64,000 nucleotides of DNA from a virus (IMGVR_UViG_3300029288_004137:32001-96000), one strand, 5' to 3'. Counted from the stretch's first letter, positions 5,668 to 38,209 are shown. The notes: generated by a model from the sequence alone, not told the origin. Made by a program: numbers and translations.

Positions 5668-6070
5668 AAGAAACGATCTTCAGCAAGTTAAAGAATGTAT
5701 TAAACATGATGTTAATATTCATTATGATAAAGGTAATGCTTTACGATATGCAGTAGATAATGGTTGTTTTGAAATTGTTAAATATCTGGTTGAATATGGC
5801 ACTGATATTCATATTTGGAATGATTATCCTTTACGAATTGCAGCACTTTATGGTTATTCTGATATTGTTAAATATCTTGTTGAGCATGGTGCTGATATTC
5901 ATGCTGATAATGATTATGCTTTACGATGGGCAGCAAATAAGGGTCATTTTGATATTGTTAAATATTTAATTCCTTTGTATAATAATAAAGAAGAATTAAA
6001 AACATTGTTTTTTAGAGTTAATAACTTTTATACTAAATTCTTAATTTTAGAACAATTATATGGAACTTAA
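5645..6070 (+). CDS. Ankyrin-repeat protein
   Basis: Ankyrin repeats plus LILEQLY tail. Confidence 0.9.
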   Translation: MDLFVAIRRNDLQQVKECIKHDVNIHYDKGNALRYAVDNGCFEIVKYLVEYGTDIHIWNDYPLRIAALYGYSDIVKYLVEHGADIHADNDYALRWAANKGHFDIVKYLIPLYNNKEELKTLFFRVNNFYTKFLILEQLYGT

Positions 6071-6076
6071 TTAAAA

Positions 6077-6448
6077 ATGAAAAAACTTTTATTTTCTATA
6101 ACCAAAAAAGATTTAGAATTTGATTATTTTTCTGGTACTGGAAATGGTGGGCAAAACAGAAATAAACACCAAAAATGTGTTAGGTGCAAACATCCACCTT
6201 CTGGTGCAGTAGGAATAGGACAAAATACTAGGTCTTTAGAACAAAATAAAAGAGATGCTTTTTTAAACATGACGAACAATAAATTATTTAAAGATTGGAT
6301 GAAAATAAAAATTGCTAAGTTTACTGTATCTGTTAAAGATATCCCTATAGAAGATGTTGTAAATGAATCAATGAAAGAAGAAAACATTAAGATAGAAATC
6401 CATGATGAAGATGGTAATTGGATCGAGGTTAAAGACATAAAAAAATAA
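6077..6448 (+). CDS. Stand-alone class I release factor (GGQ) domain protein, ribosome-rescue type
   Basis: SGTGNGGQNRNK...VR..H.PSG.....Q..RS..QNK..A. Confidence 0.85.
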   Translation: MKKLLFSITKKDLEFDYFSGTGNGGQNRNKHQKCVRCKHPPSGAVGIGQNTRSLEQNKRDAFLNMTNNKLFKDWMKIKIAKFTVSVKDIPIEDVVNESMKEENIKIEIHDEDGNWIEVKDIKK

Positions 6449-6514
6449 ATCTTGACTTTTGATCCAATTTTTGATATTATAAGTATATAAAATAAAAAAT
6501 CAGAAAGGAACATT

Positions 6515-6892
6515 ATGAAATTCGAGAACGCAATAACAAAACTGGAAAGACTTGGTTATAAAACTGAAAAGAACACTTATGGTATTTATTCATTTGTAGT
6601 GAATAACCATACTATTTCTTTTTTTAAAGTTATTGGAAAAGGTACCGTAGATAAACCTACAGTAACTTATCCAATAGAATCAGACAAACAACCAAAAAGA
6701 TTCTCTTCTCTAATGGCAGCAATTAGAGAATGTGGAGGAGTTGCTACCCTTAAAGAACTCAATGAACTTCAAAAAAAGCAAAAAATTGCTTCTCTTAATA
6801 ACGTTGAAGCTCTACGAAGAAAAGCAGATAAGATAGATGAAAACAAAAAAGAAGAATTTGTTAATAAAATTCTTGAACTACGTAACTCATAA
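6515..6892 (+). CDS. Hypothetical protein
   Basis: Own TTGACT promoter at about 6452 and SD. Confidence 0.65.
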   Translation: MKFENAITKLERLGYKTEKNTYGIYSFVVNNHTISFFKVIGKGTVDKPTVTYPIESDKQPKRFSSLMAAIRECGGVATLKELNELQKKQKIASLNNVEALRRKADKIDENKKEEFVNKILELRNS

Positions 6893-8549: not shown

Positions 8550-9083
8550 ATGGACTTTTTGATAAATTGGGTATGTGTGTTTTTTCTTTTCCTTTCTGAT
8601 TGGCATGGTGTATGTTATATAAATTCTAATTCAAAAATCTGTAAAAATATTGATATACCAACTATCTTTCAATATACATCAATTATATTAAAAGAAACAA
8701 ATATTTATAATGATATAAATCCATTAGTAGTAGCTGCAATAATTTGGCATGAAAGCCATTTGAATCCAAAAGCGATTGGTCCTAATAAAAAAGACATAGG
8801 ACTTATGCAAATCTCTTATATTTGGGTTAAAGAAACAAAAAATGATTTAAAAAATCCTGAAATAAATATAAAAGTTGGTATATCAATATTAAATTATTGG
8901 AAAAATGAAAGAACAAAATCACATTCAAAAAACTACTTAGCACATTATGCAGCAGGTAATTCCCCAGAAAAAAAACATTTTCTTTTTCAAAAAAAAATTA
9001 TTAATAAAGCAAAAAAATTTAATATAAAAGAACAAATTTATGTCAATGTTAACAAACTTAGAAAAAAGAACCCAAGAAATTAA
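8550..9083 (+). CDS. Lytic transglycosylase (SLT domain)
   Basis: AAIIWHES, DIGLMQI and NIKVG motifs; hydrophobic N-terminus. Confidence 0.85.
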   Translation: MDFLINWVCVFFLFLSDWHGVCYINSNSKICKNIDIPTIFQYTSIILKETNIYNDINPLVVAAIIWHESHLNPKAIGPNKKDIGLMQISYIWVKETKNDLKNPEINIKVGISILNYWKNERTKSHSKNYLAHYAAGNSPEKKHFLFQKKIINKAKKFNIKEQIYVNVNKLRKKNPRN

Positions 9084-17962: not shown

Positions 17963-18061
17963 TGCTTTGTTCCCTCACTGTTTATGCTCTAAGCATACCA
18001 TACCTCGAAACGATTGTCAAGAAAAAAACAACTGGAAATCTAATTCTATTACCTTTCTTCC

Positions 18062-18340
18062 GGTGATAGAGAAAAAGCATCATGCTTCTTAATTCTATTT
18101 ATATGTTAACTCCTTGATATTATTCAATTCACATTTTATTGTATCACTTTTCTCTAGTGAAGAGAAAAGAATCATGCTTTTTAAAATCTATTTGTATGTT
18201 AACTCCTTGATACTATTCAATTCACATTTTTTGGTATACTTTCTTTCCAGTGAAGAGAAAGAGGTATGAATTGAATATCATGTAAGTATTGTTAACACTA
18301 TGATAACATTCAATTCATACTTTTTGGTATACTTTTTCTT
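18062..18340. repeat. About 93-bp tandem repeat (2 copies plus a degenerate third) containing IHF-consensus sites
   Basis: TATCAAGGAGTTA on - strand at 18107-18119 and 18200-18212 matches WATCAANNNNTTR. Confidence 0.7.
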
Positions 18341-19085
18341 ATATAAAGCGCAATCATCTTAAGCATTAAGTTTTTAACTGTTTCTTTTCAAACCGGCTTA
18401 TCTCGTATATGATTCATTGTATCACCGTTAAATTAATTGTTTTTAATACAAAGATGATATATTCAATATAACAAAAATTGTTCAGGACCATCTCTAATTG
18501 AATTCATTGTTTTATCGCCTTCAATTGCATTTACGGAAGTTTAAAAGGCACCTGATATAATTCTGTTATAAAGCGCCTATCAAATACAATCATCATTCTT
18601 ACGTACAAGTTTAACAAGTCATGACAATTGTTAATTGTTGTATAGAACAATACTTCATTCTATTTTATCGTCAAGAAAACAGCATTGTATTTGATAGACT
18701 TATTCAATGTATTTTATAACCAATCACCTTCCTTTCAAAGAGAAAACATAAAATCATATCTTGTTTCCATTGCTTATAATAGACCATTCCACTCAAGGCC
18801 CAATGAAATCTATTGCGTCAGCTCTTGGTCAGGCTAGTTTATTTTAACGCGCTACAAGACTTTGACTTTGCTTATGTTTCTTTGTTAAAAAAAACAGTTG
18901 ACAAACAGAATCAAATGTGGTAAAATCGGATTAAATCCGATTTTTTTCTGTTATAAACCCGAAGTTATGCCATAAAATGATTCTATTTTTGTAACCATGT
19001 TAAATCATGGTACAATTTGATTGAAACATTTGGAACATTTCAATTTTATTCATAATTTAAAAGAGCGAGGGATTTACTTAATTGC

Positions 19086-19414: not shown

Positions 19415-19630
19415 TCAAGCTTTTTCTGAAGGAGAGCAAGAAGCAATATGTTTGACCAGAAATTTGACGGTTTCAAGATTGCTTTCATCATCAGAGACAC
19501 AAGCGCCATGTTTGAGTAGCAATTTGACGGTTTCAAGATTGCTTTCATCATCAGAGACATGAACATCAGCGCCATGTTTGAGTAGCAATTTGACAGATTC
19601 AAGATTGCTCGTATTCTTATTCTTTCTCAT
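19415..19630 (-). CDS. Degenerate ankyrin-like miniprotein with internal tandem repeats
   Basis: SNLE(S/T)VKLLLKHGA repeated about three times. Confidence 0.55.
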   Translation of the reverse strand: MRKNKNTSNLESVKLLLKHGADVHVSDDESNLETVKLLLKHGACVSDDESNLETVKFLVKHIASCSPSEKA

Positions 19631-25740: not shown

Positions 25741-25931
25741 AAGTTAAAAATAGAATTCAAGGATAATCACATGTATTTATTAACGATTTTCATCTTTTTT
25801 CACACTCATATAAGATTTGAAAAAGTATCAACTTCAGAAAACAATTTTTTTAATTCTATATCAGAATAATAAGGAATAAAAATGTAAATCTTATATCTGC
25901 AAGGATTATCCTTGAATTCTATTTTTAACTT
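25741..25931 (-). ncRNA. Long-stem ncRNA carrying an ankyrin-gene-derived loop
   Basis: Perfect 28-bp terminal inverted repeat; inner 11-bp stem; homologous to 31597..31866. Confidence 0.7.
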
Positions 25932-25978
25932 TTCAAAGAACAAATAACAATATTATTGATTTGTTTCTTTTCAACGAA

Positions 25979-26344
25979 AAATTAATATTAACAAGAGGTT
26001 TTTACTAAGTATAAACAAGTTCAGTTAAAAAGACAGCTCGATCAAATCTTTAAGATTTGAACCTTTTAACAAGAGACTAATATTGTTTAAACGTCACTTG
26101 AAAAGAGAATGATAAATTTCCTCTTTCAAAGAAAAGAAATTGTTTTGTCTTTTAGGTAAATTATTTATACCATTATATTTTAAAACTTCCGGCTGTTAAA
26201 ACATATTATAACAAAGAGAGATTTATCAAAATATATTGAAAGTTATAAAATTGTATAAATCTTTAATAAAATATATCAATAAACAATTTGATTATATTTT
26301 CTACTCTTTGTTTTTTAGTAAAAACCTCTTGCTAATATTAACTT
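25979..26344 (-). ncRNA. Long-stem structured ncRNA (about 365 nt)
   Basis: 30-bp terminal stem with two G-U pairs on the - strand; internal hairpins. Confidence 0.65.
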
Positions 26345-26535
26345 CTCAAATAACAAATACAAGATTTTTCTTCTTCTTTTTCTTCTTCTTCTTCTATTTC
26401 GCTCATTAATTGATCAATTTCATATTCATTATCTGTAATTTCAGTAGTAAGACGTGAAATTTCTTCTTCAATTCTGGAATTTCTTGCTTCCAAAATCTCC
26501 AATTTTATTGTAAGCTTAATAATAGAATCTTTCAT
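26338..26535 (-). CDS. Acidic coiled-coil miniprotein
   Basis: Behind a repeated promoter and SD. Confidence 0.6.
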   Translation of the reverse strand: MKDSIIKLTIKLEILEARNSRIEEEISRLTTEITDNEYEIDQLMSEIEEEEEKEEEKSCICYLRS

Positions 26536-26628
26536 TTTATAAACCTTTCTTTTTTATGTTTTCTCAATCGTTCATGCTCTAAGCATAGCACACTTAAAAC
26601 ATGAAGTCAAGAGAAAAAGCACTATGCA

Positions 26629-26907
26629 TTATATTTTTTTATAGTCAAGAGAAAGGAAAAAATTAATTGGCAATGTGATTGTATTAAATGATATATTGAA
26701 AGTATTTTCCATATGCTCTATTATATTTTCCAGCATATCATTAACTGAAATTTCAGGAATATCAGCATTATTTATCCGATCTATATCTGGATAATCACCG
26801 CGAAAAATTTCACACAACTCTATTGATCCATCATTTACATTAGCTTTAATACAAATGGATATTCCATTAGTCATCTGAATAGTCGTTTTCATCGAAAAAA
26901 CTTGCAT
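26629..26907 (-). CDS. Hypothetical protein, paralog 1 of 3
   Basis: IELCE..GD..PDI...TLPI.FF. Confidence 0.7.
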   Translation of the reverse strand: MQVFSMKTTIQMTNGISICIKANVNDGSIELCEIFRGDYPDIDRINNADIPEISVNDMLENIIEHMENTFNISFNTITLPINFFLSLDYKKI

Positions 26908-26944
26908 TTGTTATTTTCCTTCTTTTATCTTTTTTTTTGTTGTG

Positions 26945-27262
26945 TTATGATGGATTTATTGATATATATTCATAATCCATTCGAGGTATAACATTAATAA
27001 GAAAAAAATCAATTGGCAATGTGATTGTTTCAATTGAAACATCGAAATTGAGTTTCATATGTTCTTTGATATTATTCAATAGATCATAAATTGTAAATCC
27101 AGTAAGATTAACATTGTTTAACCAATTGATATCTGGAGAAGCAAGATCACCATGAACAACTTCACACAATTCTATTGTGTTGTCCCTTGTATTAACTATA
27201 ACATTAATTTTAATTTCACTATTTACTCGAATAGTCATTTTTATTGAAGAAATTTGTTGCAT
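26945..27262 (-). CDS. Hypothetical protein, paralog 2 of 3
   Basis: Near-identical to 27325..27612. Confidence 0.7.
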   Translation of the reverse strand: MQQISSIKMTIRVNSEIKINVIVNTRDNTIELCEVVHGDLASPDINWLNNVNLTGFTIYDLLNNIKEHMKLNFDVSIETITLPIDFFLINVIPRMDYEYISINPS

Positions 27263-27324
27263 TTATTATTTCTCTTCTTTTTTTATCTTTTTTTTTCGTT
27301 GTGTTATGATGGATTTAATATATA

Positions 27325-27612
27325 TTATTCATGATCCATTCGAGGTACAACATTAACAATAAAAAAACCAATTGGCAATATGATTTTTTCAATTGAAACA
27401 TCGAAATTGAGTTTCATATGTTCTTTGATATTATTCAATAGATCATAAATTGTAATTCCAATATCAGCATTTAACCAACTGATATCTGGAGAACCAAGAT
27501 CACCACGAACAACTTCACACAATTCTATTGAATTGTCCCTTGCATTAGCTATAACATTAATTTCAATTTCACTATTTACTCGAATAGTCATTTTCATCGA
27601 AGAAACTTGCAT
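27325..27612 (-). CDS. Hypothetical protein, paralog 3 of 3
   Basis: Same family. Confidence 0.7.
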   Translation of the reverse strand: MQVSSMKMTIRVNSEIEINVIANARDNSIELCEVVRGDLGSPDISWLNADIGITIYDLLNNIKEHMKLNFDVSIEKIILPIGFFIVNVVPRMDHE

Positions 27613-28326
27613 TTGTTATTTTCCTTCTTTATCTTTTTAATTATTCTGGCATGATAGCTTTTAGAATTTGATCTGTCAAAACATCAATAACTTCTTCGCA
27701 TTTGTCTCTTTTATCGCTAAGAACACGAATTTTTTCTTTCATAGCAATTATTTCATTATCAAAGAGGAACATTTGTGTTTTATAAGATTTTACTCTAGTG
27801 AGCAATCCTAGAGATTGATCTTTTTCCTCTCGTGTAAGATCAATTTTCAAAACTTTCGACATGGATTCATCATTTTCTTGTATAAAATTTTCCATTTCTT
27901 TTTCCTTTGGTGGTGAATTTAATTAAAACAATTATCAGGATCAAAAGAATAACTTCTATCATATTCATTCGGCGAATGAATAATCAATACTGTTTCTTTA
28001 TGTCCAAAGATAAATTGATTTCTCATTTCCCATCTGAGAGAATTAAGATTGTTTTTATCTCTTACCTCAAAAGAGATCCCATTGATTTTATCAGATAAAT
28101 CAAATACTTGCATTGTCTTTTCATTTGGATCTTCTTCATTTGGAGAAGGAAAAACAAAATGAATAAAAAGACTTGAGATATCTTCGTCAATAGGAATAGA
28201 AACTTTTACCAAAGAATCACTATAATTATCCACACGGAAATGAATAATAAACAATTTATTCATTTCTTTTGCATAGGTAATTACGAATTGCGGTGAATCA
28301 ATCATTTCCATTTCTTTGTCCTATTG

Positions 28327-28620
28327 TCAATTCAAATTGTAATTCTTTTTCAAAAGAGTAGAAAGCAGGTTACAATTCGTTAGTTCTCTATCAGAGAAAC
28401 TCTTGATTTTACGAATACAATCCAAAGAATCATTGAAAAGTTTATTGCAAAGATAGGAATCAAAATTCTTATCTTTGGTTACATCATTTTTCTTCAGAAG
28501 AAAAAGAAGTCTATCTGACTCACGCTTAGCAGTGAAAAGATCAAAGCTCAATTTCTTGATTTTATTGAAAGAATCATCATACAACTTCTTGCAAAGGTAG
28601 GAATCAAAATTCTTTTTCAT
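28327..28620 (-). CDS. Hypothetical protein with internal duplication
   Basis: KNFDSYLC.KL..DS occurs twice. Confidence 0.6.
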   Translation of the reverse strand: MKKNFDSYLCKKLYDDSFNKIKKLSFDLFTAKRESDRLLFLLKKNDVTKDKNFDSYLCNKLFNDSLDCIRKIKSFSDRELTNCNLLSTLLKKNYNLN

Positions 28621-28911
28621 TTTATAGACCTTTTTTTTATGTTTTCTCAATCGTTCATGCTCTAAGCATAGCACGCTTTAAGCACAAAGTCAAGGAAAAA
28701 GTTTTGAATTTATTTCATCGCAATTATAATCTAAAAGATTTTCAATGCGATGATTTCTTTCTTTATACCCCCAGATTTTATTTGAAATTTCTTCCATTCT
28801 TTTTTCCAAAATAAAAATTTGTTCTCTATTTCGAATTTTTTCTTCAATAAGAAGTTCATTTTCATCTCTTATTTCTTCATAACTTCTTCTCATAATAAAA
28901 ACCCCTCTTTT

Positions 28912-29463
28912 TTAAAAAGAAAACAATACTGGATCTATCTTATCAGATAGTATCTCAAATAATTTCTTTGTTCTTTCGCAATCAGATGAAGCACAATGTG
29001 CTTCACCTTTGAATTGAATATTATACTTTTCACAAAGAAAATCTAGTTTTGTATTTGATTCTCCGCTATCCTTTGCCATTTCTTTTGTATCAAAGAAATA
29101 CGGAAAATTTATATTTAAATTATTTGATTTAAATAATTTATCAATAAATTCCAAATCAAATATCAGGTTTTGACCTACAAGAATATCTGATTCTTCAATC
29201 ATATCCTTAATTATATGAGATACGGATTCAAATGATTTAGCTGTTTTCTCCCATTCTTCTTTCGAATAATGATTCATTTCAAGAGCTTTCGGTGAGGCTG
29301 TTTCAATATGAGATGGAATGAATTTTACTTCAAATTTATCTAATTGATAAAGCTTTGCATTTTGTTCATTTGAAAGAACATAACGAATCATTGCCAATTG
29401 AATGATTTCATTGTCTTTTAGCACTAATCCAGTTGTTTCTGTATCAAGAAATGTAAGGATCAT
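28912..29463 (-). CDS. DEDDh 3'-5' exonuclease (DnaQ-like)
   Basis: FLDTETTG, GQNLIFD, AHCASSD. Confidence 0.88.
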   Translation of the reverse strand: MILTFLDTETTGLVLKDNEIIQLAMIRYVLSNEQNAKLYQLDKFEVKFIPSHIETASPKALEMNHYSKEEWEKTAKSFESVSHIIKDMIEESDILVGQNLIFDLEFIDKLFKSNNLNINFPYFFDTKEMAKDSGESNTKLDFLCEKYNIQFKGEAHCASSDCERTKKLFEILSDKIDPVLFSF

Positions 29464-29891
29464 TTTTATTTTTATTCCAAATGATAAGATGACTTTCAAG
29501 AGGAGAACTGATTTCCTCAGAAATTTTAATACTATCAAATATTTCTTTTGAAACATGAAGAGTAAAATATTGTCCTTTCTGCAAAGGAAGAGAAATTCTT
29601 ATTATAGCTAAATTATCTTCTCTTTCTTTTTCAATACAAATAGATACAAATTTATATGTTACTATTGGAGAACATGGTGAAAATTTAGCACAATGCTCAC
29701 TATTTACAATAATAAATATTTCATCCAAATTACAGTTTTCTTGTTTACATCTTTCAATAAAAATTTCATAATCTTCGTTATCATCAATTTTTTTTGAAAA
29801 TATGTCTTTCAAAAAAAATGATTCTTTGCGAGGATTAAAAGTACATTGAGTTAGCATTTTATTCATTCCAAATGATAATAACTAAAAATAG

Positions 29892-29964
29892 TACCCTTAC
29901 CAGGAATCGAACCTGGATTGTCAGATTAGAAGTCTGATACTCTTTCCAATTGAGATATAAGGGC
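29892..29964 (-). tRNA. tRNA-Arg(UCU)
   Basis: Arm TCAGA-CTTCTAA-TCTGA; T loop TTCGATT. Confidence 0.93.
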
Positions 29965-29968
29965 ACAA

Positions 29969-30051
29969 AATAAAGTTAAGATACGAAGTCCTAAAATGCC
30001 CTACAATTGATTTGTTTTAGGGTTTAGGTAAAAAAATATCTTAACTTTATT
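29969..30051 (-). ncRNA. Stem-loop element directly 5' of tRNA-Arg
   Basis: Perfect 15-bp inverted repeat AATAAAGTTAAGATA. Confidence 0.5.
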
Positions 30052-30107
30052 TCAACGCTTCCAATTTAAATTATGGAAGCGTAGCAGGCATTTATATTTA
30101 TACTATA

Positions 30108-30344
30108 TCAAAAAGATACCATTAACAATTCAATGACTGATTGAACATTGCTTGTTTGACAATCTTCGCAGAAATAATTTCTTGCATCAGTCTCTACTGA
30201 GTCTACAATAGAACCACAATTAGTACAAAATCCATCTGTTATACCATCAAATATCATACTTTGAATGGTATTATAAGAATATTCTGCTTCTTTTCCATTC
30301 TTTGCAATGAGAACCAAATTCCCATTAATACGATGAATAACCAT
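30108..30344 (-). CDS. Zinc-ribbon protein
   Basis: CTNCG...CEDC; SD AGGAAGG. Confidence 0.65.
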   Translation of the reverse strand: MVIHRINGNLVLIAKNGKEAEYSYNTIQSMIFDGITDGFCTNCGSIVDSVETDARNYFCEDCQTSNVQSVIELLMVSF

Positions 30345-30370
30345 TTTTATTTCCTTCCTTTTTCAATAAG

Positions 30371-30616
30371 AAAGTTAATATTAGGAAGAGATTTATATCA
30401 AGTATGAATATTAAAGATAAAGGTTTCTTTCTCTCTCAGCTCAAAGAACTTCGCTTTTCTTAAGAATATTTCATACCATCACAATACAAGACGACTAGTA
30501 TTTCCGTTATATTGTGTTCTAACGAAGAATAACATTATTCATATACTGAGATGATACATGATATAACGTATCTTTTCTTGGCTTTTTAATATAAATCTCT
30601 TCCTAATATTAACTTT
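30371..30616 (-). ncRNA. Long-stem structured ncRNA with its own promoter
   Basis: Perfect 28-bp terminal stem; TTGACA/TATGAT promoter at about 30627-30656. Confidence 0.7.
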
Positions 30617-30691
30617 TCATAGTTCAATCATACCATACTTTTTTTCAAATGTCAAGCTTTATTTTTATCAAGAAAATCACAATGTTAAAAA

Positions 30692-30870
30692 GGATAGAGA
30701 AAAGGGAACAATTAACAATTAGTTTATATTTCAAAATTAAATTTCAACCATCAAGCAATTAATGAAATTGCGGAACGTGGTATCACAGTTTAATTTTGAC
30801 TAATTTCAATATGGGTAATTAATCCATATATCCCTCATTAAAAACGAGAATTGTTCCCCTTTCTCTATCC
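30692..30870 (-). ncRNA. Long-stem structured ncRNA with its own promoter
   Basis: 22-bp stem with one G-U on the - strand; TTGACA/TATGCT promoter at about 30879-30907. Confidence 0.7.
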
Positions 30871-31521
30871 ATAAACTAAGCATATCACGCTTTTTTTCAA
30901 ATGTCAAGAAGAAAAAGCATTGGAAATGTTGTTCAGAATGTTGTATTCAAAAAACGAATTGTTTGTTCTCTGAGAAGTCCTAGATAAGACTCAAATTCTT
31001 CATCATAAAAACAATTTTCATCAATTGTTTTTTCAAATTCTTTATTTATAATAACATTGAATTGAGAATAAATATTTTCCCATAATTGAGATATAACCTT
31101 TTTTTGAAGATCATTTAACATTCTTCTACATTTCCTCTTTAAGAATATCAAGAATTCCAAGAATTTCTTCTTTTTCTTCAGAAGAATAAGAATCATAATT
31201 ATTGTTTAAATCATCAAGAACATCTTTATAAAATTCAAACATTTATTTTCAATCTTCTTCTTTTGATAGGTTAATAATATCAGCCATTTCTTCTTTAAGA
31301 GGGTTTCTCTTTCGCCTTCTTATTTCTTTTCTTTTAAAGCGGACAATACTTCTTTCCACATAATCATCACTTGCTTCTTTTTTGTTAGAATCTTCAAGAT
31401 AAGAATCTTCATCGAATCCAATGGATTCATCAAAAGCATCAGTTATGCGCTTAATCTTCTTCTTTCCCATTTAGAACATCCCTATCATTTAAACAAGTTA
31501 AACAATTAATAACAATTAAAG

Positions 31522-31593
31522 TGGAGAATAAGGGAATCGAACCCTTAAAATAAGATTGCAAATCTTATATTTTCCCAATTAAATTAATTCCCC
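31522..31593 (-). tRNA. tRNA-Ala(UGC)
   Basis: Loop TTTGCAA; G3:U70 pair. Confidence 0.93.
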
Positions 31594-31596
31594 AAT

Positions 31597-31866
31597 AAGT
31601 TAAAAATAGGATTCAAGAATAAACTTGTATTTATTAGCGATTTCTCCTCAATATCTAAAAAGTGCCCCTTACCACAAAATTGGTATTATTGACTTTTAAT
31701 TGAGAAGAAACCTGGCATATAGTGTGCCCCGTACTCCCATCGTTTTTATCATTAACCGATCTTTTGACAAGAGATGTTCTATACACTTCAAGATTTGAAT
31801 TTAAAATCTACAAAACAATTCAAGTCTTATATCTGCAAGTTTATTCCTGAATCCTATTTTTAACTT
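31597..31866 (-). ncRNA. Long-stem ncRNA forming the leader of tRNA-Ala
   Basis: 31-bp stem with one G-U; promoter at about 31878-31906; ends 3 nt before the tRNA. Confidence 0.72.
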
Positions 31867-32021
31867 TTCATGGTTCAATCATACCATACTTTTTTTCAAA
31901 TGTCAAGAACAAAATTCTACGGAAGATTCGTGCTTCACATGGAAATTAACTACTATGCCATTCTTAGCATGTTCAATTTCCATGTTAAAAAAATGAGGAC
32001 AAATTCCAGTTTTGTTTCCGA

Positions 32022-32223
32022 CAATTACATAGCGATCTCCTTTTTCTTTAAAATCCATCTGTTTTTGATAAGCAAAAACATGTACCTTTGAACAAATAGG
32101 ACAAATAGCAGAAAATTCCTTTCAATTACATAGCGATCTCCTTTTTCTTTAAAATCCATCTGTTTTTGATAAGCAAAAACATGTACCTTTGAACAAATAG
32201 GACAAATAGCAGAAAATTCCTTT
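32022..32223. repeat. 101-bp tandem duplication frameshifting a CPxC-family gene
   Basis: CAATTACATAGCG...AAAATTCCTTT occurs twice. Confidence 0.85.
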
Positions 32224-32340
32224 ACAGGAAAATAATAACATCCATAATCAATGCTATCCATGTTTATGCTTTTCCTTCTTCAACCGTTTATGCTTTAAGT
32301 ATAACATACCTTTTTTCAAATGTCAAGAAGAAAATAATAG

Positions 32341-32415
32341 CAGTGTGTATGAGATTTGAACTCATGATCCTCGACGTGACAGGCCGATGCATTAAACCAA
32401 CTATGCTAACACACT
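32341..32415 (-). tRNA. tRNA-Asp(GUC)
   Basis: Loop CTGTCAC; acceptor AGTGTGT/ACACACT. Confidence 0.93.
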
Positions 32416-32490
32416 AAAAAAATATTTCTTGAAATAACTGGAGTTAATACCAGTCTTTTTTCTTTTTTGTCAAGAAGAAAATGAATGGAA

Positions 32491-32910
32491 TTAAATTTCT
32501 TTACAAACATATAAATTTGCCGTTTCCGAATAATATCCATTGCTTGTTCCATACCATCGAATAGTAACAGATCCTTTTATGGTTCTGATATTGTAAAAAT
32601 ACCACGTTTGACTTTGACCATTAGGTTCATAACCATCATCACTATCATCCTCACTACACTTGTGTTTATAATCACAATAAGCACTGAGAATTTCAGTGTT
32701 TTCAAGATCTGACAAATCTCCACATATATCTTCAATAGATACATCTTCACAACAGTCTTGATCGTGATATTGAACATATCCCGAATTTGAATCTTTTAAC
32801 TGAAAAACAATACACTCTTTTTCATCATATCCAATATATGATTTAAAAACTTTGGAAAAAATTTTTCCTTCTAATTCTTTTTCGTCTATATATCCATATT
32901 CAGCATACAT
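32491..32910 (-). CDS. Conserved phage protein, paralog of 23638..24015
   Basis: Same motifs. Confidence 0.75.
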   Translation of the reverse strand: MYAEYGYIDEKELEGKIFSKVFKSYIGYDEKECIVFQLKDSNSGYVQYHDQDCCEDVSIEDICGDLSDLENTEILSAYCDYKHKCSEDDSDDGYEPNGQSQTWYFYNIRTIKGSVTIRWYGTSNGYYSETANLYVCKEI

Positions 32911-33641
32911 TTTTATATTTCCTTCAATTTTTAATAAGAGAAACAATGAAGTTTTTGATATTTAATATAATCCCACCATAAGATCAGTAAATCTAAATAA
33001 TCAGAATGTTTTTTACTAGAAATCATTTTAACAAATTCATCTTTTGTCCAAAGATGAAGAGACATATTTATATTATAACCCCTTCTCTTCAGAATTTGAA
33101 AAGATTTCTTTATCCATCTTTGCTTTTTTGTTATCTTTCCCTTTTTTGAAGATACCACTTCCTCTTTTTCTTGAAGAATATTCCTAATTTCTTTTTTTAC
33201 TTTCTCTTTTGGAGAGAAAGGGTATTTTGTATGGCAATAGGTTTTTATAGAATATGCTTTCATTGTATTTCTTCTTTTTCAACCGTTTATGCTTTAAATA
33301 TAACACACCTTTTTTTAAATGTCAAGAAAAAAATTCTTCAATCAAATCAACGCATTTCACTTTCTCATAAGAGAAGGATGTTTCTTCTCATCAAAGAAAC
33401 TTTTTCCATCTTTATTAAAGAAAAAAACATCTGTTAATTCTTTCATATCTTTAAAGATAATTTCACTGTTTTCTTCATCGGATTCTTTAATAATCTTCAG
33501 AATAAGACATTTATTGATTTTTCGATGCTTTTTGTTAGCAATTTTCTTATCGCCCTTTTCTGAAGAACAAGAAGTAAAACCACAAATAGGAGATTTCTTA
33601 AACGAATGAGACATCATACTCCTCTTTTTATTTATAAATAG

Positions 33642-33714
33642 TGAGACAAGAGAGACTTGAACTCTCAACTCTCGGGTTAAAAGCCCGATACTCTACCAAT
33701 TGAGTTATTGTCTC
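33642..33714 (-). tRNA. tRNA-Lys(UUU)
   Basis: Arm TCGGG-CTTTTAA-CCCGA. Confidence 0.93.
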
Positions 33715-33849
33715 GATAAATTTTCAAAGAAAAAGAGGCTTGGATTATAAGCCTAAGCCAATAATAACAAACCCCTTTTACGCAAGTTTTTCTTTTAGAC
33801 AAAAACTCGCACTTTTGATTTATTGTTGTGATAACAATAAAGAAAAGAG

Positions 33850-33921
33850 TATCGCCATGGAGAATTGAACTCCAATACTAAGCGTGAAAGGCTTATAAAC
33901 TATCCGTTGTTTTATGGCGAT
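33850..33921 (-). tRNA. tRNA-Glu(UUC)
   Basis: Arm TAAGC-CTTTCAC-GCTTA. Confidence 0.9.
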
Positions 33922-33941
33922 AAAATAACCATTAACTTCTG

Positions 33942-34014
33942 CGGATCAATTAGGACTTGAACCTAAAACCCCTCGGTTAACAGCCGAGCGCTCTACCAAT
34001 TGAGCTACTGACCC
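33942..34014 (-). tRNA. tRNA-Asn(GUU)
   Basis: Arm CTCGG-CTGTTAA-CCGAG. Confidence 0.92.
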
Positions 34015-34032
34015 TTATTATTCAATATTATG

Positions 34033-34105
34033 CGGGCCAATTAGGACTTGAACCTAAAACCTTTTGTTTTGGAGACAAATACTCTGCCAATTGAGTTACT
34101 GACCC
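34033..34105 (-). tRNA. tRNA-Trp(CCA)
   Basis: Arm TTTGT-CTCCAAA-ACAAA. Confidence 0.92.
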
Positions 34106-34112
34106 TTATTCA

Positions 34113-34355
34113 AAAATTTAAAAGAAAACATGAATATGAAAAAAAATATATCTTAAAGTATCATCATTATCATTATAAGACAACATAAATCAACATGACT
34201 TTTTTCTGCTGCAAATCTTGAAGAAACAAAATATTCAACGAGATCAAGATGACCATTTATATAAAGTAATTAAGTAATTAAAAAACAAAGCGCACCGTGT
34301 TCAACAAGGTATTTAACAACATCAAACATCATATTCATGTTTTCTTTTAAATTTT
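34113..34355 (-). ncRNA. Long-stem ncRNA enclosing tiled ankyrin-gene fragments
   Basis: Perfect 27-bp inverted repeat; interior has four ankyrin-like segments; 7 nt upstream of tRNA-Trp. Confidence 0.7.
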
Positions 34356-34370
34356 CAAATAACAAAATCT

Positions 34371-34415
34371 TGTCCGGGAGGATTCTACTCCGTTGAATAA
34401 CTATCCTCCCGGACA
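34371..34415 (-). ncRNA. GC-rich hairpin at the start of the transcript from the promoter at about 34431-34459
   Basis: TGTCCGGGAGGAT/ATCCTCCCGGACA; TTGACT-N17-TAGAAT upstream. Confidence 0.55.
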
Positions 34416-34465
34416 CGATTAACAGATTCAATTCTATCAGATAAAATTTCAAAAGTCAAGAGAAA

Positions 34466-34723
34466 AATGGGGGTTCAGCAAGAGAAACCTATCTGATTGC
34501 AGATTTTAATCTCTTTTCTAATCCTTTATTAGAACAAAGGGCCAAACCCCCATTCTGTACTCTCATTCGCAAAGAATATCAATCATATGAGATATATATG
34601 GGTTGATAATTCTTCACTTGCAAAGGTCACAAACAAGAAACGGATTATTCTGTTGTAACATTAAACATTGCTAAGTCATTCTATGCAAATCCATCTACAT
34701 TTCGAAGTAACTTATGAGAGTAC
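34466..34723 (-). ncRNA. Two adjacent structured RNA domains behind a promoter and a boxA-like motif
   Basis: Stems GTACTCTCAT/ATGAGAGTAC and AATGGGGGTT/AACCCCCATT; no ORF. Confidence 0.55.
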
Positions 34724-34806
34724 CTATAAATTTTAAAGAACAATTTTCAACTCTTCATACTCTAAGTATAGCACATTCAATTTCAAAAGTCAAGTGTTTT
34801 TTTTAG

Positions 34807-34891
34807 AGGAAAGAAAGGGATTTGAACCCTTGGGGCTTTAAAACCCACTAGTTTTCAGGACTAGCGCCTTAAACCACTCGGCCATCTTTCC
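34807..34891 (-). tRNA. tRNA-Ser(UGA)
   Basis: Long variable arm; loop CCTGAAA (C at position 33). Confidence 0.88.
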
Positions 34892-34962
34892 CAACGCTTC
34901 ATAAACCAATCATAACACACTTGACTTCAAAAGTCAAGAAAAAAATTCTTCAATCAAATCAG

Positions 34963-35034
34963 AGCCCTTCATCGGACTTGAACCGACAACCCCCTGCTTA
35001 CAAGGCAGGAGCTCTACCATTGAGCTAAAAGGGC
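34963..35034 (-). tRNA. tRNA-Thr(UGU)
   Basis: Arm CCTGC-CTTGTAA-GCAGG. Confidence 0.93.
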
Positions 35035-35041
35035 AACATAG

Positions 35042-35126
35042 TGCTGAAAGAGGGATTTGAACCCTCACGGTTTATACAACCGAGGGATTTTGAATCCCTT
35101 GTGTCTCCCATTTCCACCATAACAGC
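35042..35126 (-). tRNA. tRNA-Leu(CAA)
   Basis: Loop TTCAAAA; long variable arm; two acceptor mismatches. Confidence 0.85.
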
Positions 35127-35138
35127 AGTAAAATATAG

Positions 35139-35221
35139 TGCTGAAGGAGGGATTCGAACCCTCATGTTTTATAAACGAAGGATTCTAAATCCTTTGTGTA
35201 TACCAATTCCACCACGATAGC
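35139..35221 (-). tRNA. tRNA-Leu(UAG)
   Basis: Loop TTTAGAA; three acceptor mismatches. Confidence 0.8.
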
Positions 35222-35281
35222 ATCGAAATATGGTGCTGAAGGAGGGATTCGAACCCTCATGACCTATGGTCGAGAGATTTT

Positions 35282-35980
35282 CATACCACTATGATTTTCA
35301 TCACTATGTTTCTACGTTTATAGAAAACATATTTGTAGCCTGGACTATGCCTTTACCTTATCTTATACTACTTAGTATAAGACTTAGGTAGTTACCGTCT
35401 AGTCTCTACACTTTCTTTTCTAAAGGAGAATCATAATGCGATTATTAAAGTATTCTGAAAAACAATTAATAGAGGCTGTTTTAACTTCTACAAGTAAACG
35501 TCAAGTTCTTTTAAAACTTAATGTAAAAGCATGTGGAGGAAATTATACTGTTCTTACCAAAGCAATAAAATATTTTAAATTAAACATATCTCATTTTACT
35601 GGAAAGGCTTGGAACAAAGGTAAAAAATTTACTAAAAAATCTCTTGAATGTTATTTAACAAACGATATTCAAATTCAATCTAATAAATTGAAAAAAAGAC
35701 TTTTAGCAGAGAAAAAATTTCCTTATCAATGCTCTAATTGTAAAAGAACAACCTGGCTTAAATGTCAAATACCTTTAGAACTTCATCATAAAGATGGAAA
35801 TTCTAAGAATAACAAGATAGACAATCTAACTTTATTATGTCCAAATTGTCATTCAATGACCACATCATATTGCCGTAGAAAAGCTTAGCTCGGCGTTGTC
35901 ATGCAAATAAATTTGTTTAGATTTCACCGAATTTGGCAACATTCACATAAAGATTTCTCGCTTATGTGCTCAAATCAAAT
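35282..35980 (-). mobile_element. Group I self-splicing intron (699 nt)
   Basis: Inserted after U34, ends in G; P7 AGACTA/TAGTCC (GTAGAGACTAGACGG...GCATAGTCCA). Confidence 0.88.
35436..35888 (+). CDS. HNH endonuclease encoded antisense within the intron
   Basis: CSNC...LELHHKDGNSKNNKIDNLTLLCPNCH; SD AAGGAG. Confidence 0.9.
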   Translation: MRLLKYSEKQLIEAVLTSTSKRQVLLKLNVKACGGNYTVLTKAIKYFKLNISHFTGKAWNKGKKFTKKSLECYLTNDIQIQSNKLKKRLLAEKKFPYQCSNCKRTTWLKCQIPLELHHKDGNSKNNKIDNLTLLCPNCHSMTTSYCRRKA

Positions 35981-36021
35981 AAGTCTCTTGCGTCTACCAT
36001 TCCGCCACAACAGCATTACAG

Positions 36022-36104
36022 TGCTATTGGAGGGACTTGAACCCCCACGATCTAAGATCAAAGGATTCTAAATCCTTTGTGTCTCCCATTTCCACCACAA
36101 TAGC
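36022..36104 (-). tRNA. tRNA-Leu(UAG), second copy
   Basis: Perfect acceptor GCTATTG/CAATAGC. Confidence 0.92.
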
Positions 36105-36737
36105 AGTTTATAATATATTATATCAAAGATTCAATTGCTCTATTTTTCTTTGTTTCTTTTCTATCATTAGAAAAAAATAGCAAATTCCATACTTCGCAAT
36201 GAGAACAACTTTTATCTTTACATGTAAGACTACATGTATCAATTTTATGATCTAATGAAATATCAATATGATACTTACTTTTTTCTAACATAATCCGTGT
36301 ATCCATATATATCTCTCAAAATGTTTGTCCTATGCCCATAAGTCCTTTCCACAAGATTATAATCTGAATTATTCTCAGATAAATCTGGAAAATAGGTATC
36401 AATCATATAAGCCATGAATTTTGTTGCCAAAACAAACGCTTCTTCCTCAGAAGCGGCTGTCTCAATAACTTCAGCTGCATTAAGAAAATTATTTATCAAA
36501 TCTTCTTGATAACTTCTTTCTTCATTCATAGTGATTATTCCCCTTCTTTAAAAGATATATAGTATCTCATCAGAAGTAAAATTGAAATTATAAGCACCAA
36601 AAAAATTGATAGAATACATTTTATTCATTCCTTATTTTTAAAAAAAAGGATTCATGGCAGAATTCATCTGCAATTACTTTCCAGAAAAGATTAACTGGCA
36701 TGAATCCAAATCTTTATCTATAATACTGATACGAGAA

Positions 36738-37277
36738 TCAAAGACCCATAGTATCAGAAACTTCGGAGATATCCGAAGTATCAGAAACTTCCGAATCATC
36801 AGAAACTACCGATCCGTCATCCAAAAAAGATTCAGAAACTTCTACTTCCGAATCATCATCATTGTCATTGTCATCATCCAAATCCTCGGAAACCTCGGAA
36901 ACCTTTACGGTATCCGTATTCGTTTCCGTTACTTCTTCGGTAACGACGGGAGTAGACTTCCTTGCCTTTTCCCTTTCCCCTTCCGCCTCAAAATCCCGAA
37001 TCATATCGATAGCCTTTGTAAGGCTAGCAACCTCGACGACACAAGGACGTTCATCGCCTTCGGGGGTGACAATGACATCCACGCCTTTGACAACCATCTC
37101 AACTCCAAAGGTCTTGGAATTTGCCTTGTTATCAAAGTCACAAGAGAAGAACAACTTTCCCTTGGGCCCTTCAACCTCGAAGATTCCATCCTGATCTTCA
37201 CTGTCACCATTAGCGGTGAGACAAATACCTACATCATTCATCCGAAAAATCTTATCAAGCGCACTGTCCTTTCTCAT
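36738..37277 (-). CDS. Protein with long acidic Ser/Asp/Glu-rich tail
   Basis: Own promoter and SD; visibly higher GC than surroundings. Confidence 0.7.
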   Translation of the reverse strand: MRKDSALDKIFRMNDVGICLTANGDSEDQDGIFEVEGPKGKLFFSCDFDNKANSKTFGVEMVVKGVDVIVTPEGDERPCVVEVASLTKAIDMIRDFEAEGEREKARKSTPVVTEEVTETNTDTVKVSEVSEDLDDDNDNDDDSEVEVSESFLDDGSVVSDDSEVSDTSDISEVSDTMGL

Positions 37278-37440
37278 AACAATTTCCTTTCTTAAGGTTA
37301 TTAAATTTAACTAATCTACAAACCATCATACCATACTTTTTTTAGGTTGTCAAGAGAAAAAGTGTTTCGAAATGTTTTTCCTTTTTCAACCGTTCATGCC
37401 TTAAGCATACCACAACTTTTTTCAAATGTCAAGAGAAAAA

Positions 37441-37765
37441 CGATGGGAAATTAATTTCCCATCGTTCTCCCTTGTGCTATGCTATAGCAAGCATAATCCG
37501 TTATTAAAAACCTAAAGATTCACGGATTTACAAAATTCTTTAGGCTTATATTGCCTGCTTAATCTACTTTACAGGAAGATAACATATGCAGGCTAATATA
37601 TGTTATCCGCTTTATTGTGTTATAAAGGAAAAACTAATAAGTGCTTTATAACACAATAAAAATGTATACTATGATAGAGATGTACGAAAAAATATGTACC
37701 TCATAGTATAGTATTAAAATTACCCGTATGGGCGACTGCCCTATTTATCAATGTGCCACGGGCAA
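37441..37765 (-). ncRNA. Multi-hairpin structured RNA between two promoters
   Basis: At least five hairpins (e.g. TTTATTGTGTTATAAAG/CTTTATAACACAATAAA); no ORF. Confidence 0.6.
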
Positions 37766-38209
37766 ACAACACAATTCTTTTTCAATCGTTCATGTCTTAA
37801 TCATACCATAACTTTTTTCAAATGTCAAGAGAAAAATTTTTCAAAATGTGAAATGTTTTTCTTTTTCAATCGTTCATGCCTTAAGTATGACATACTTTTT
37901 TTCAAAAGTCAAGAAAAAAGTGAATGGCAAAATATTTTTATTTTAAGTGCAATTATCACAAATATTTATATCCACTCCTCTTTTCTTCTTCTTCTTTTTC
38001 TTCCTTCTCTCTTTCAAATTCAATTCTGGCATTAAAGAGATTATCTTCAGCTTCATAAATTGGTTTTCTATCGAGATAATATTCATATTCTTCAATAAAA
38101 TGAGGACCATGCTCATCATTAAAACCAGGAATAAATTCCATAATATCTTCTTTATATTTTCTTTTTGCCAAAAGCAATTTATACTCTAATTCAATTATTG
38201 TTGATAATT

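Follow-up and report, generated by a model that had tools for sequence, protein, structure and literature searches.

Predicted noncoding RNA cassettes with ribosomal RNA operon features in the transfer RNA region of a large phage genome

Here we describe a group of predicted noncoding RNA (ncRNA) genes interleaved with the transfer RNA (tRNA) genes of a phage known from metagenomic sequence. The window, i.e. the whole stretch of DNA analysed, comprises 64,000 nucleotides (nt; IMGVR_UViG_3300029288_004137:32001-96000), and coordinates refer to its first letter unless stated otherwise. Seven elements closed by long stems, named E1 to E7 by coordinate order, lie within 8.6 kb on the minus strand, which is also the strand of the tRNAs and promoters; two further structured blocks are designated B8 and B9. 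A previous inspection of the same DNA, here called the sequence-only reading, had listed all seven elements, and searching both strands for long-range stems recovered every one of them at the coordinates given there. We conclude that these cassettes are real and that they are undescribed in the sources searched.

Stem-closed elements of the tRNA locus

The window is part of a 209,974-nt IMG/VR phage record with a G+C content of 27.7%, listed as complete, in which ARAGORN finds 22 tRNA genes. The genome also encodes three ligases (RtcB, an Rnl1-type and an Rnl2-type enzyme) and about 25 ankyrin-repeat genes, which occupy roughly 13 kb in tandem arrays; two of these genes lie nearby, on the strand of the elements. 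The sequencing runs that contain the region originate from landfill and groundwater, and none of them is listed as an RNA dataset. Contigs from other studies carry the elements without any difference, which shows that they are not an assembly artefact and also means that strain covariation is absent. Cluster and homologue look-ups identify the phage as a singleton whose neighbouring proteins belong to clusters with only one or two members. Among capsid proteins the nearest reach 50-55% identity, the capsid, GroEL and RtcB relatives are all distant (36-55% identity), and the tRNA regions of two distant relatives contain no comparable stems.

25741-25931, minus strand: E1, perfect 28-bp closing stem, scaffold in common with E6, poorly folded interior
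25979-26344, minus strand: E2, stem of 29-30 bp with two G-U pairs, or 34 bp with four; paralogue of E4
29968-30052, minus strand: E3, 85-nt rod with 16 Watson-Crick closing pairs and a short hairpin ahead of it at about 30055-30080
30371-30616, minus strand: E4, stem of 28 bp perfect, or 31 bp with one G-U pair; four-way junction as in E2
30692-30870, minus strand: E5, 22-bp stem with one G-U pair, unrelated in sequence, closing three arms
31597-31866, minus strand: E6, 31-bp stem with one G-U pair; paralogue of E1 whose interior differs and is folded
34106-34362, minus strand: E7, stem of 27 bp perfect, or 34 bp with two G-U pairs (coordinates of the longer stem); poorly folded interior
34466-34723, minus strand: B8, two folded domains with 10 perfect closing pairs each, three-armed at 34557-34723 and a hairpin ending in a U run at 34466-34554
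37472-37774, minus strand: B9, separate RNA of about 300 nt with a 9-bp closing stem and long hairpins

The closing stems measure 16-34 bp. A helix of more than 17 bp joining the flanks is present in E1, E2 and E4 to E7 (22-34 bp); in E3, where the sequence-only reading had counted 15 pairs, it measures 16-19 bp, and B8 and B9 fail this test. Stems of this length are rare by chance: in 30 shuffled versions of the 16-kb region, only one stem of at least 18 bp was obtained in total and none of at least 22 bp. In the rest of the 210-kb genome, the only comparable repeats are two perfect ones, both over open reading frames (ORFs), and two of 19-22 bp that are rich in G-U pairs. The perfect repeats are located at 8646-8890 of the window (18 bp) and at 26682-27061 of the genome (L011 6683-7062; 24 bp), the latter after a set of GC-rich palindromes.

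Several lines of evidence point to RNA of the minus strand. In a strand-neutral count, stem mismatches on that strand comprise five G-U and no A-C pairs (two-sided p = 0.06), so that the strand bias noted previously is real, yet weak on its own. Folding of whole elements is better by 12-20 kcal/mol on the minus strand for E2, E4, E6, E7 and B8, and neutral for E1, E3 and E5. No element contains a stop-free run of more than 50 codons. A 45-codon TTG frame crosses E1, in frame with the ankyrin-gene piece described below; it has no ribosome-binding site, its start region lies within the stem and it is shifted by one base relative to E6, which makes a coding reading unlikely.

With respect to kinship, E1/E6 and E2/E4 form paralogue pairs, E3, E5 and E7 each stand alone, and the interiors outside the two pairs are unrelated. 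Thus the earlier proposal of one ncRNA family holds insofar as these are undescribed minus-strand ncRNA genes, but their interiors fall into several unrelated classes. The boxA-like feet, the four-way junction and the ankyrin-gene pieces described below are additional to that proposal. The 5' start shared by four elements (E1, E2, E4 and E6) was confirmed.

The claim that no known RNA family is represented was also borne out. Rfam returned only tRNAs at gathering score and nothing below E = 0.1 inside the elements, and at E values up to 10 it added nothing other than chance traces. No ribosomal RNA (rRNA) was matched in the elements by Rfam, and a local search found no 23S or 5S similarity. 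A blastn search of 50,697 phage records gave tRNA-Ala only, exact-pattern scans of viral contigs for the E1/E6 and E2/E4 motifs gave no match, and a sequence-only model of E2/E4, applied to the genome and to 15 loci, brought up no further copy. This architecture is not described in the literature searched.

Individual candidates were rejected on specific grounds. For Y RNA/YrlA, the sole YrlA trace falls on tRNA-Trp, and no TROVE (Ro60) gene was found in the genome. For 6S RNA, there is no model match at E values up to 10, E5 is branched, and a rod in E1 is unsupported by the centroid fold. A retron msr-msd or the template repeat of a diversity-generating retroelement (DGR) was rejected because no reverse transcriptase gene was detected and, for the DGR, because the differences from the target gene are not adenine-specific; likewise, no Nop-domain or IS110 protein was found that would accompany a TIGR or bridge guide RNA, and IS200 and TnpB-type genes were not found in the genome either. 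Finally, B9 as a transfer-messenger RNA (tmRNA) is negative by both ARAGORN and Rfam, with no tRNA-like domain, CCA end or evident tag frame.

Promoters, boxA-like motifs and tRNA junctions

26582-26610, minus strand: extended -10 promoter of the sigma70 type, the closest one ahead of E2 and E1, with an intervening 65-codon ORF
30627-30655, minus strand: promoter, 11/12 consensus positions plus TG, 10 nt ahead of E4
30879-30907, minus strand: promoter, 8 nt ahead of E5
31878-31906, minus strand: promoter, 11/12 consensus positions plus TG, 11 nt ahead of E6
34431-34459, minus strand: promoter, predicted to drive the hairpin-boxA-E7-tRNA unit
25930-25942, minus strand: boxA-like motif at the foot of E1, with stem pairing running on into the motif
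26343-26355, minus strand: boxA-like motif at the foot of E2
34352-34364, minus strand: boxA-like motif at the foot of E7
34731-34742, minus strand: boxA-like variant ahead of B8, about 20 nt after a promoter at 34765-34793
34366-34420, minus strand: 18-bp hairpin between promoter and boxA-like motif, in the position of boxB in rRNA leaders
29891-29964, minus strand: tRNA-Arg(TCT), 4 nt after E3
31521-31593, minus strand: tRNA-Ala(TGC), 3 nt after E6
34032-34105, minus strand: tRNA-Trp, abutting the extended E7 stem and followed by tRNA-Asn, tRNA-Glu and tRNA-Lys

At the sequence level, these genes share a format in which the promoters are strong and of the sigma70 type, a boxA-like motif marks RNA starts that lie at a distance from the promoter, and a long helix resembles that between rRNA leader and trailer; in many cases a tRNA comes directly behind. 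The placements recognised in the sequence-only reading agree with this description: E4, E5 and E6 start 10, 8 and 11 nt from a promoter, and E3, E6 and E7 end 4, 3 and 7 nt before a tRNA (0 nt for E7 with its extended stem). The boxA-like motif, searched for with a pattern picked after the sites had been seen, occurs three times in the 210 kb, exactly at the feet of E1, E2 and E7, with 0.25 occurrences expected in shuffles. E4 and E6 start at the promoter and retain just the last bases of the motif. In the E7 unit, promoter, 18-bp hairpin, boxA-like motif, long helix and four tRNAs follow one another, matching the succession of boxB, boxA and leader-trailer helix in rRNA operons (PMC10250234).

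Also in the window, between 22169 and 40097 on the minus strand, about 10 promoters lead into one common short initial sequence, the three-codon frame ATG-AAC-GAT/GGT-TGA or close variants; the starts of E4 and E6 resemble it. A 130-nt spacer between tRNA-Glu and tRNA-Lys (33716-33845, minus strand) is folded (z -4.6) and has a partial boxA-like run at its end.

The foot of E1 has counterparts in real rRNA operons. In a search with one genome per species, 3 of 21 hits lay in a 16S-23S spacer, all three in Phycisphaerae, where the 19-nt foot recurs exactly within the 23S leader, after tRNA-Ile and tRNA-Ala. In one of these genomes (L124), the motif forms the foot of the helix around the 23S gene, pairing with sequence past the gene. 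The boxA core is common across phyla, and for this reason the match is a weak hint of the host, to which we assign little weight. One of 16 viral hits was in an unrelated phage (L140; IMGVR_UViG_3300045988_131458, 5707-6556, minus strand), in which 18 nt of the same sequence lie in a 29-bp stem around a folded 850-nt RNA that follows tRNA-Cys, has no Rfam family and resembles GOLLD in size and setting.

Folded interiors and ankyrin-gene pieces

Comparison of the paralogues revealed 3-13 compensatory changes per comparison in the stems of E1, E6, E2 and E4 (27 positions), with no pair broken. Taken alone, stem covariation is limited as evidence for RNA, because the terminal repeats of a DNA element could show it, and the interior is the better test. 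When E2 (366 nt) and E4 (244 nt) were folded separately, they adopted the same four-way junction: the stem comprises 29 positions, the linkers measure 3, 4, 2 and 0 nt, and the third arm has the same start in both. Among 27 interior pairs proximal to the junction, six show compensatory changes, three are changed on one side and one is broken; this covariation speaks for RNA, since inverted repeats at the DNA level would not require it. E1 and E6 have in common an inner helix and the sequence just within both stem strands, around interiors that differ.

Branched folds were predicted with confidence for E2, E4, E5, E6 and B8. The two blocks that the sequence-only reading had placed at 34466-34723 and 37441-37765 fold better than shuffles, with z scores of -5.7 for B8 and -3.7 for B9. 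B9 has its own promoter (37800-37828), a terminator-like hairpin (37441-37464) and two possible pseudoknots of 6 and 7 bp that were recognised by inspection of the sequence.

The interiors of E1 and E7 have no stable fold and contain pieces of the phage's own ankyrin genes.

25820-25881, minus strand: E1 piece, 62 nt, sense, C-terminal motif, located in the loop that an inner helix of 11 bp closes
34148-34326, minus strand: five E7 pieces, sense, 25-35 nt each (34292-34326, 34259-34283, 34225-34258, 34189-34222 and 34148-34176), covering 157 of 189 interior nt

The E1 piece includes 22/22 nt identical to one ankyrin gene. In E7 the order of pieces is a repeat core, a C-terminal junction and three overlapping repeat parts in reverse order. 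Counting 26-nt windows that match elsewhere in the genome with at most four mismatches gave 41 for E1 and 40 for E7, and 1 and 2 for the reversed controls; no genome pieces were found in E2 to E6, B8 or B9. All pieces in both elements are sense and are as near the family consensus as coding copies, or nearer. Four of the five E7 pieces are only 3-4 nt from the consensus, all five are 4-7 nt from the nearest gene, and three are nearer the consensus than 83-97% of coding copies. This likeness to the consensus would fit selection to resemble many genes at once; deletional decay of tandem ankyrin genes is a possible alternative origin. No antisense copy of the pieces was found in the genome, nor was a CRISPR-like array, and adenine-specific mismatches to the ankyrin genes were not seen. 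Elsewhere in the window (19415-19630, minus strand), a 71-amino-acid (aa) ORF behind its own promoter consists of three ankyrin-like units shortened by deletion, which shows that such rearrangements happen in this phage.

The window holds further features of interest. A tRNA-Leu(TAA) gene at 35226-36014 on the minus strand has its anticodon interrupted by an insert of 699 nt; the insert ends in G, and the other strand of it encodes an HNH endonuclease ORF (35436-35888). The joined exons give a normal tRNA, and the insert is probably a group I intron; neither ARAGORN nor Rfam detected the split gene. Three tandem paralogous ORFs of 92-105 aa lie at 26629-27612 (minus strand), of which the one scanned has no Pfam match. 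An exact 101-nt tandem duplication at 32022-32223 is not spanned by any listed contig piece and is possibly an assembly feature. At 18000-19080, about 1 kb without a 60-codon ORF contains three 46-nt direct repeats at 93-nt spacing, a possible origin or packaging region.

Interpretation and comparison with known systems

The observations are probably best explained by an expression and release cassette in the style of rRNA operons that carries functional cargo. According to this model, the phage would express a set of different ncRNAs by means of a copy of the host rRNA-operon format. From what is known of rRNA, host Nus factors would bind boxA and thereby prevent Rho termination; each RNA would then be freed by host enzymes, RNase P acting at the tRNA that follows and RNase III or Mini-III cutting within the stem, and the paired ends would keep the RNA stable and abundant. 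Neither an RNase III nor a NusB gene was found in the phage genome, so the host enzymes would be required. Processing of the stems by RNase III may fairly be inferred, and it gains support because the boxA foot of E1 is shared with a real 23S stalk.

The stem would thus be the carrier and the cargo would vary: a four-way junction in E2 and E4, other folds in E3, E5, E6, B8 and B9, and exposed ankyrin sense pieces in E1 and E7. Of the jobs that the cargo might perform, that of a decoy is the likeliest, although we propose it tentatively. Folded cargo would occupy host proteins that bind or cut RNA, and ankyrin pieces would occupy whatever recognises ankyrin mRNA by sequence. A more specific version, which we regard as doubtful, casts E7 and E1 as sequence decoys against RNA-guided or antisense surveillance of ankyrin mRNA by the host, the sister cassettes as structural decoys, and the maturation pathway as borrowed from rRNA. 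The roughly 25 ankyrin genes would then constitute a multi-copy target that single mutations could not hide, and abundant, stem-protected RNAs would present spacer-sized, consensus-like sense pieces.

Several observations weigh against the cassette model. E3 to E6 lack a full boxA, the stem of E5 is unrelated in sequence, and the putative motifs of E2 and E7 are one or two bases off that of E1. The closing stems of B8 and B9 fall short of the length that a typical RNase III site requires. Two scans of other viruses for boxA-footed stems of 170-295 nt gave chance hits only; the 24 viral boxA inverted repeats that enclose 150-270 nt all have stems of at most 15 bp, as expected by chance. No partner protein or target was identified. 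Close relatives are absent from the collections searched, and conservation was therefore judged within one genome and its paralogues.

The alternative that survives best, though we consider it rather unlikely, is that the stems are processing or stabilising signals of the tRNA operons, with interiors that are mostly tolerated filler and ankyrin pieces that are debris of former local tandem genes. Three stems do end at tRNAs, but no tRNA follows E1, E2, E4 or E5, and the interior helices of E2 and E4 covary. The debris part draws on the extent of the tandem arrays, with two genes close by on the same strand, and on the deletion-shortened derivative at 19415-19630. Moreover, the pieces are 4-11 nt off every gene, their changes are not biased towards keeping pairing, and the order in E7 is reachable through deletions across two tandem genes. 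However, for E7 this calls for four or five deletions that would each have left about 30 nt intact, and three E7 pieces would have to end nearer the consensus than the great majority of coding copies quoted above.

E1 and E7 could instead be guides or donors, whose sense pieces pair with the ankyrin template strand and steer recombination, gene conversion or transcription. In favour of this role, each piece matches 7 to 43 genome sites at 75% identity or more, and the scaffold common to E1 and E6 encloses different inner-loop sequences. Against it, the genome yielded none of the reverse transcriptase, IS110, IS200, TnpB-type or Nop-domain genes sought, the mismatches are not adenine-specific as they are in DGRs, a perfect gene match is limited to part of the E1 piece, and the other elements have no genome pieces; we regard this role as improbable.

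Still less credible is the proposal that the RNAs are circularised or repaired by RtcB, Rnl1 and Rnl2 and act as circles. The 5' and 3' ends would be held together, the RtcB gene comes immediately after E1, and the other two ligase genes are within 6 kb of B9. RNase III leaves a 5'-phosphate, a 3'-OH and a 2-nt overhang; such ends are not known to be joined by RtcB, and joining them would give a strained loop. The action of the three ligases on these RNAs, as suggested in the sequence-only reading, was not upheld: nothing except their proximity points there, and enzymes of this kind are widespread among phages that carry tRNA clusters, where they are explained by their known role in tRNA repair (PMC3014915).

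Miniature inverted-repeat transposable elements (MITEs) or similar DNA elements that captured gene pieces would account for the long, near-perfect terminal inverted repeats and for shared ends around differing interiors, but this reading is largely refuted, as the earlier rejection of transposon ends had anticipated, by the lack of consistent target-site duplications (none longer than 3 nt), by the absence of dispersed copies outside the cluster, every copy falling within 8.6 kb and adjoining a promoter start, a boxA motif or a tRNA end, by the G-U bias to one strand, by the interior covariation between paralogues, and by the failure to find IS200, IS110 or TnpB-type genes in a search that did not extend to DDE transposases.

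Known systems resemble parts of this locus. At the level of single elements, B9 resembles tmRNA in its length of about 300 nt, its paired ends and its two consecutive possible pseudoknots near the 3' end. E1 and E7 resemble a DGR template repeat or a bridge or TIGR guide RNA in that an ncRNA scaffold carries a portion of a gene family in sense orientation, but they differ in having no linked protein that we could find, no adenine-specific differences and no repeat-spacer array.

At the level of the locus, T4 RNAC and RNAD and phage K lnc001 and lnc002 are likewise RNAs of phage tRNA regions, transcribed and of unknown function (PMC3014915, PMC9697503, PMC9241854). No sequence match to the elements was found among the phage records searched, and long stems, boxA feet or own-gene pieces are not described in the parts of these sources consulted. 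GOLLD and ROOL are also function-unknown ncRNAs of phage tRNA arrays that are probably co-transcribed with tRNAs (PMC5737381, PMC12990946). The present elements share the tRNA-array setting but measure 83-366 nt, as opposed to about 580 nt or more, fall below the size criterion of about 500 nt, match no covariance model and carry several unrelated cargoes.

The closest parallel is the rRNA operon leader, with its boxB-boxA-boxC order and leader-trailer helix, in which the roles of boxA and of this helix are described (PMC10250234). The likeness comprises a strong promoter, a hairpin, a boxA-like motif and a flank-joining helix, and extends to the tRNA directly behind the phage unit. The differences are that the phage elements occur in a phage, enclose 50-310 nt and no rRNA, and in several cases lack boxA. 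The T4, GOLLD, ROOL and phage K RNAs have no known function, and this locus provides two handles on function, namely a four-way junction conserved in two paralogues and cargo that points to the phage's own ankyrin genes. Decoys made from own-gene pieces, if true, would represent a form of counter-defence not found in the literature searched. For that group of RNAs, the locus also gives a testable production rule (boxA, leader-trailer helix and tRNA end), which doubles as a search signature.

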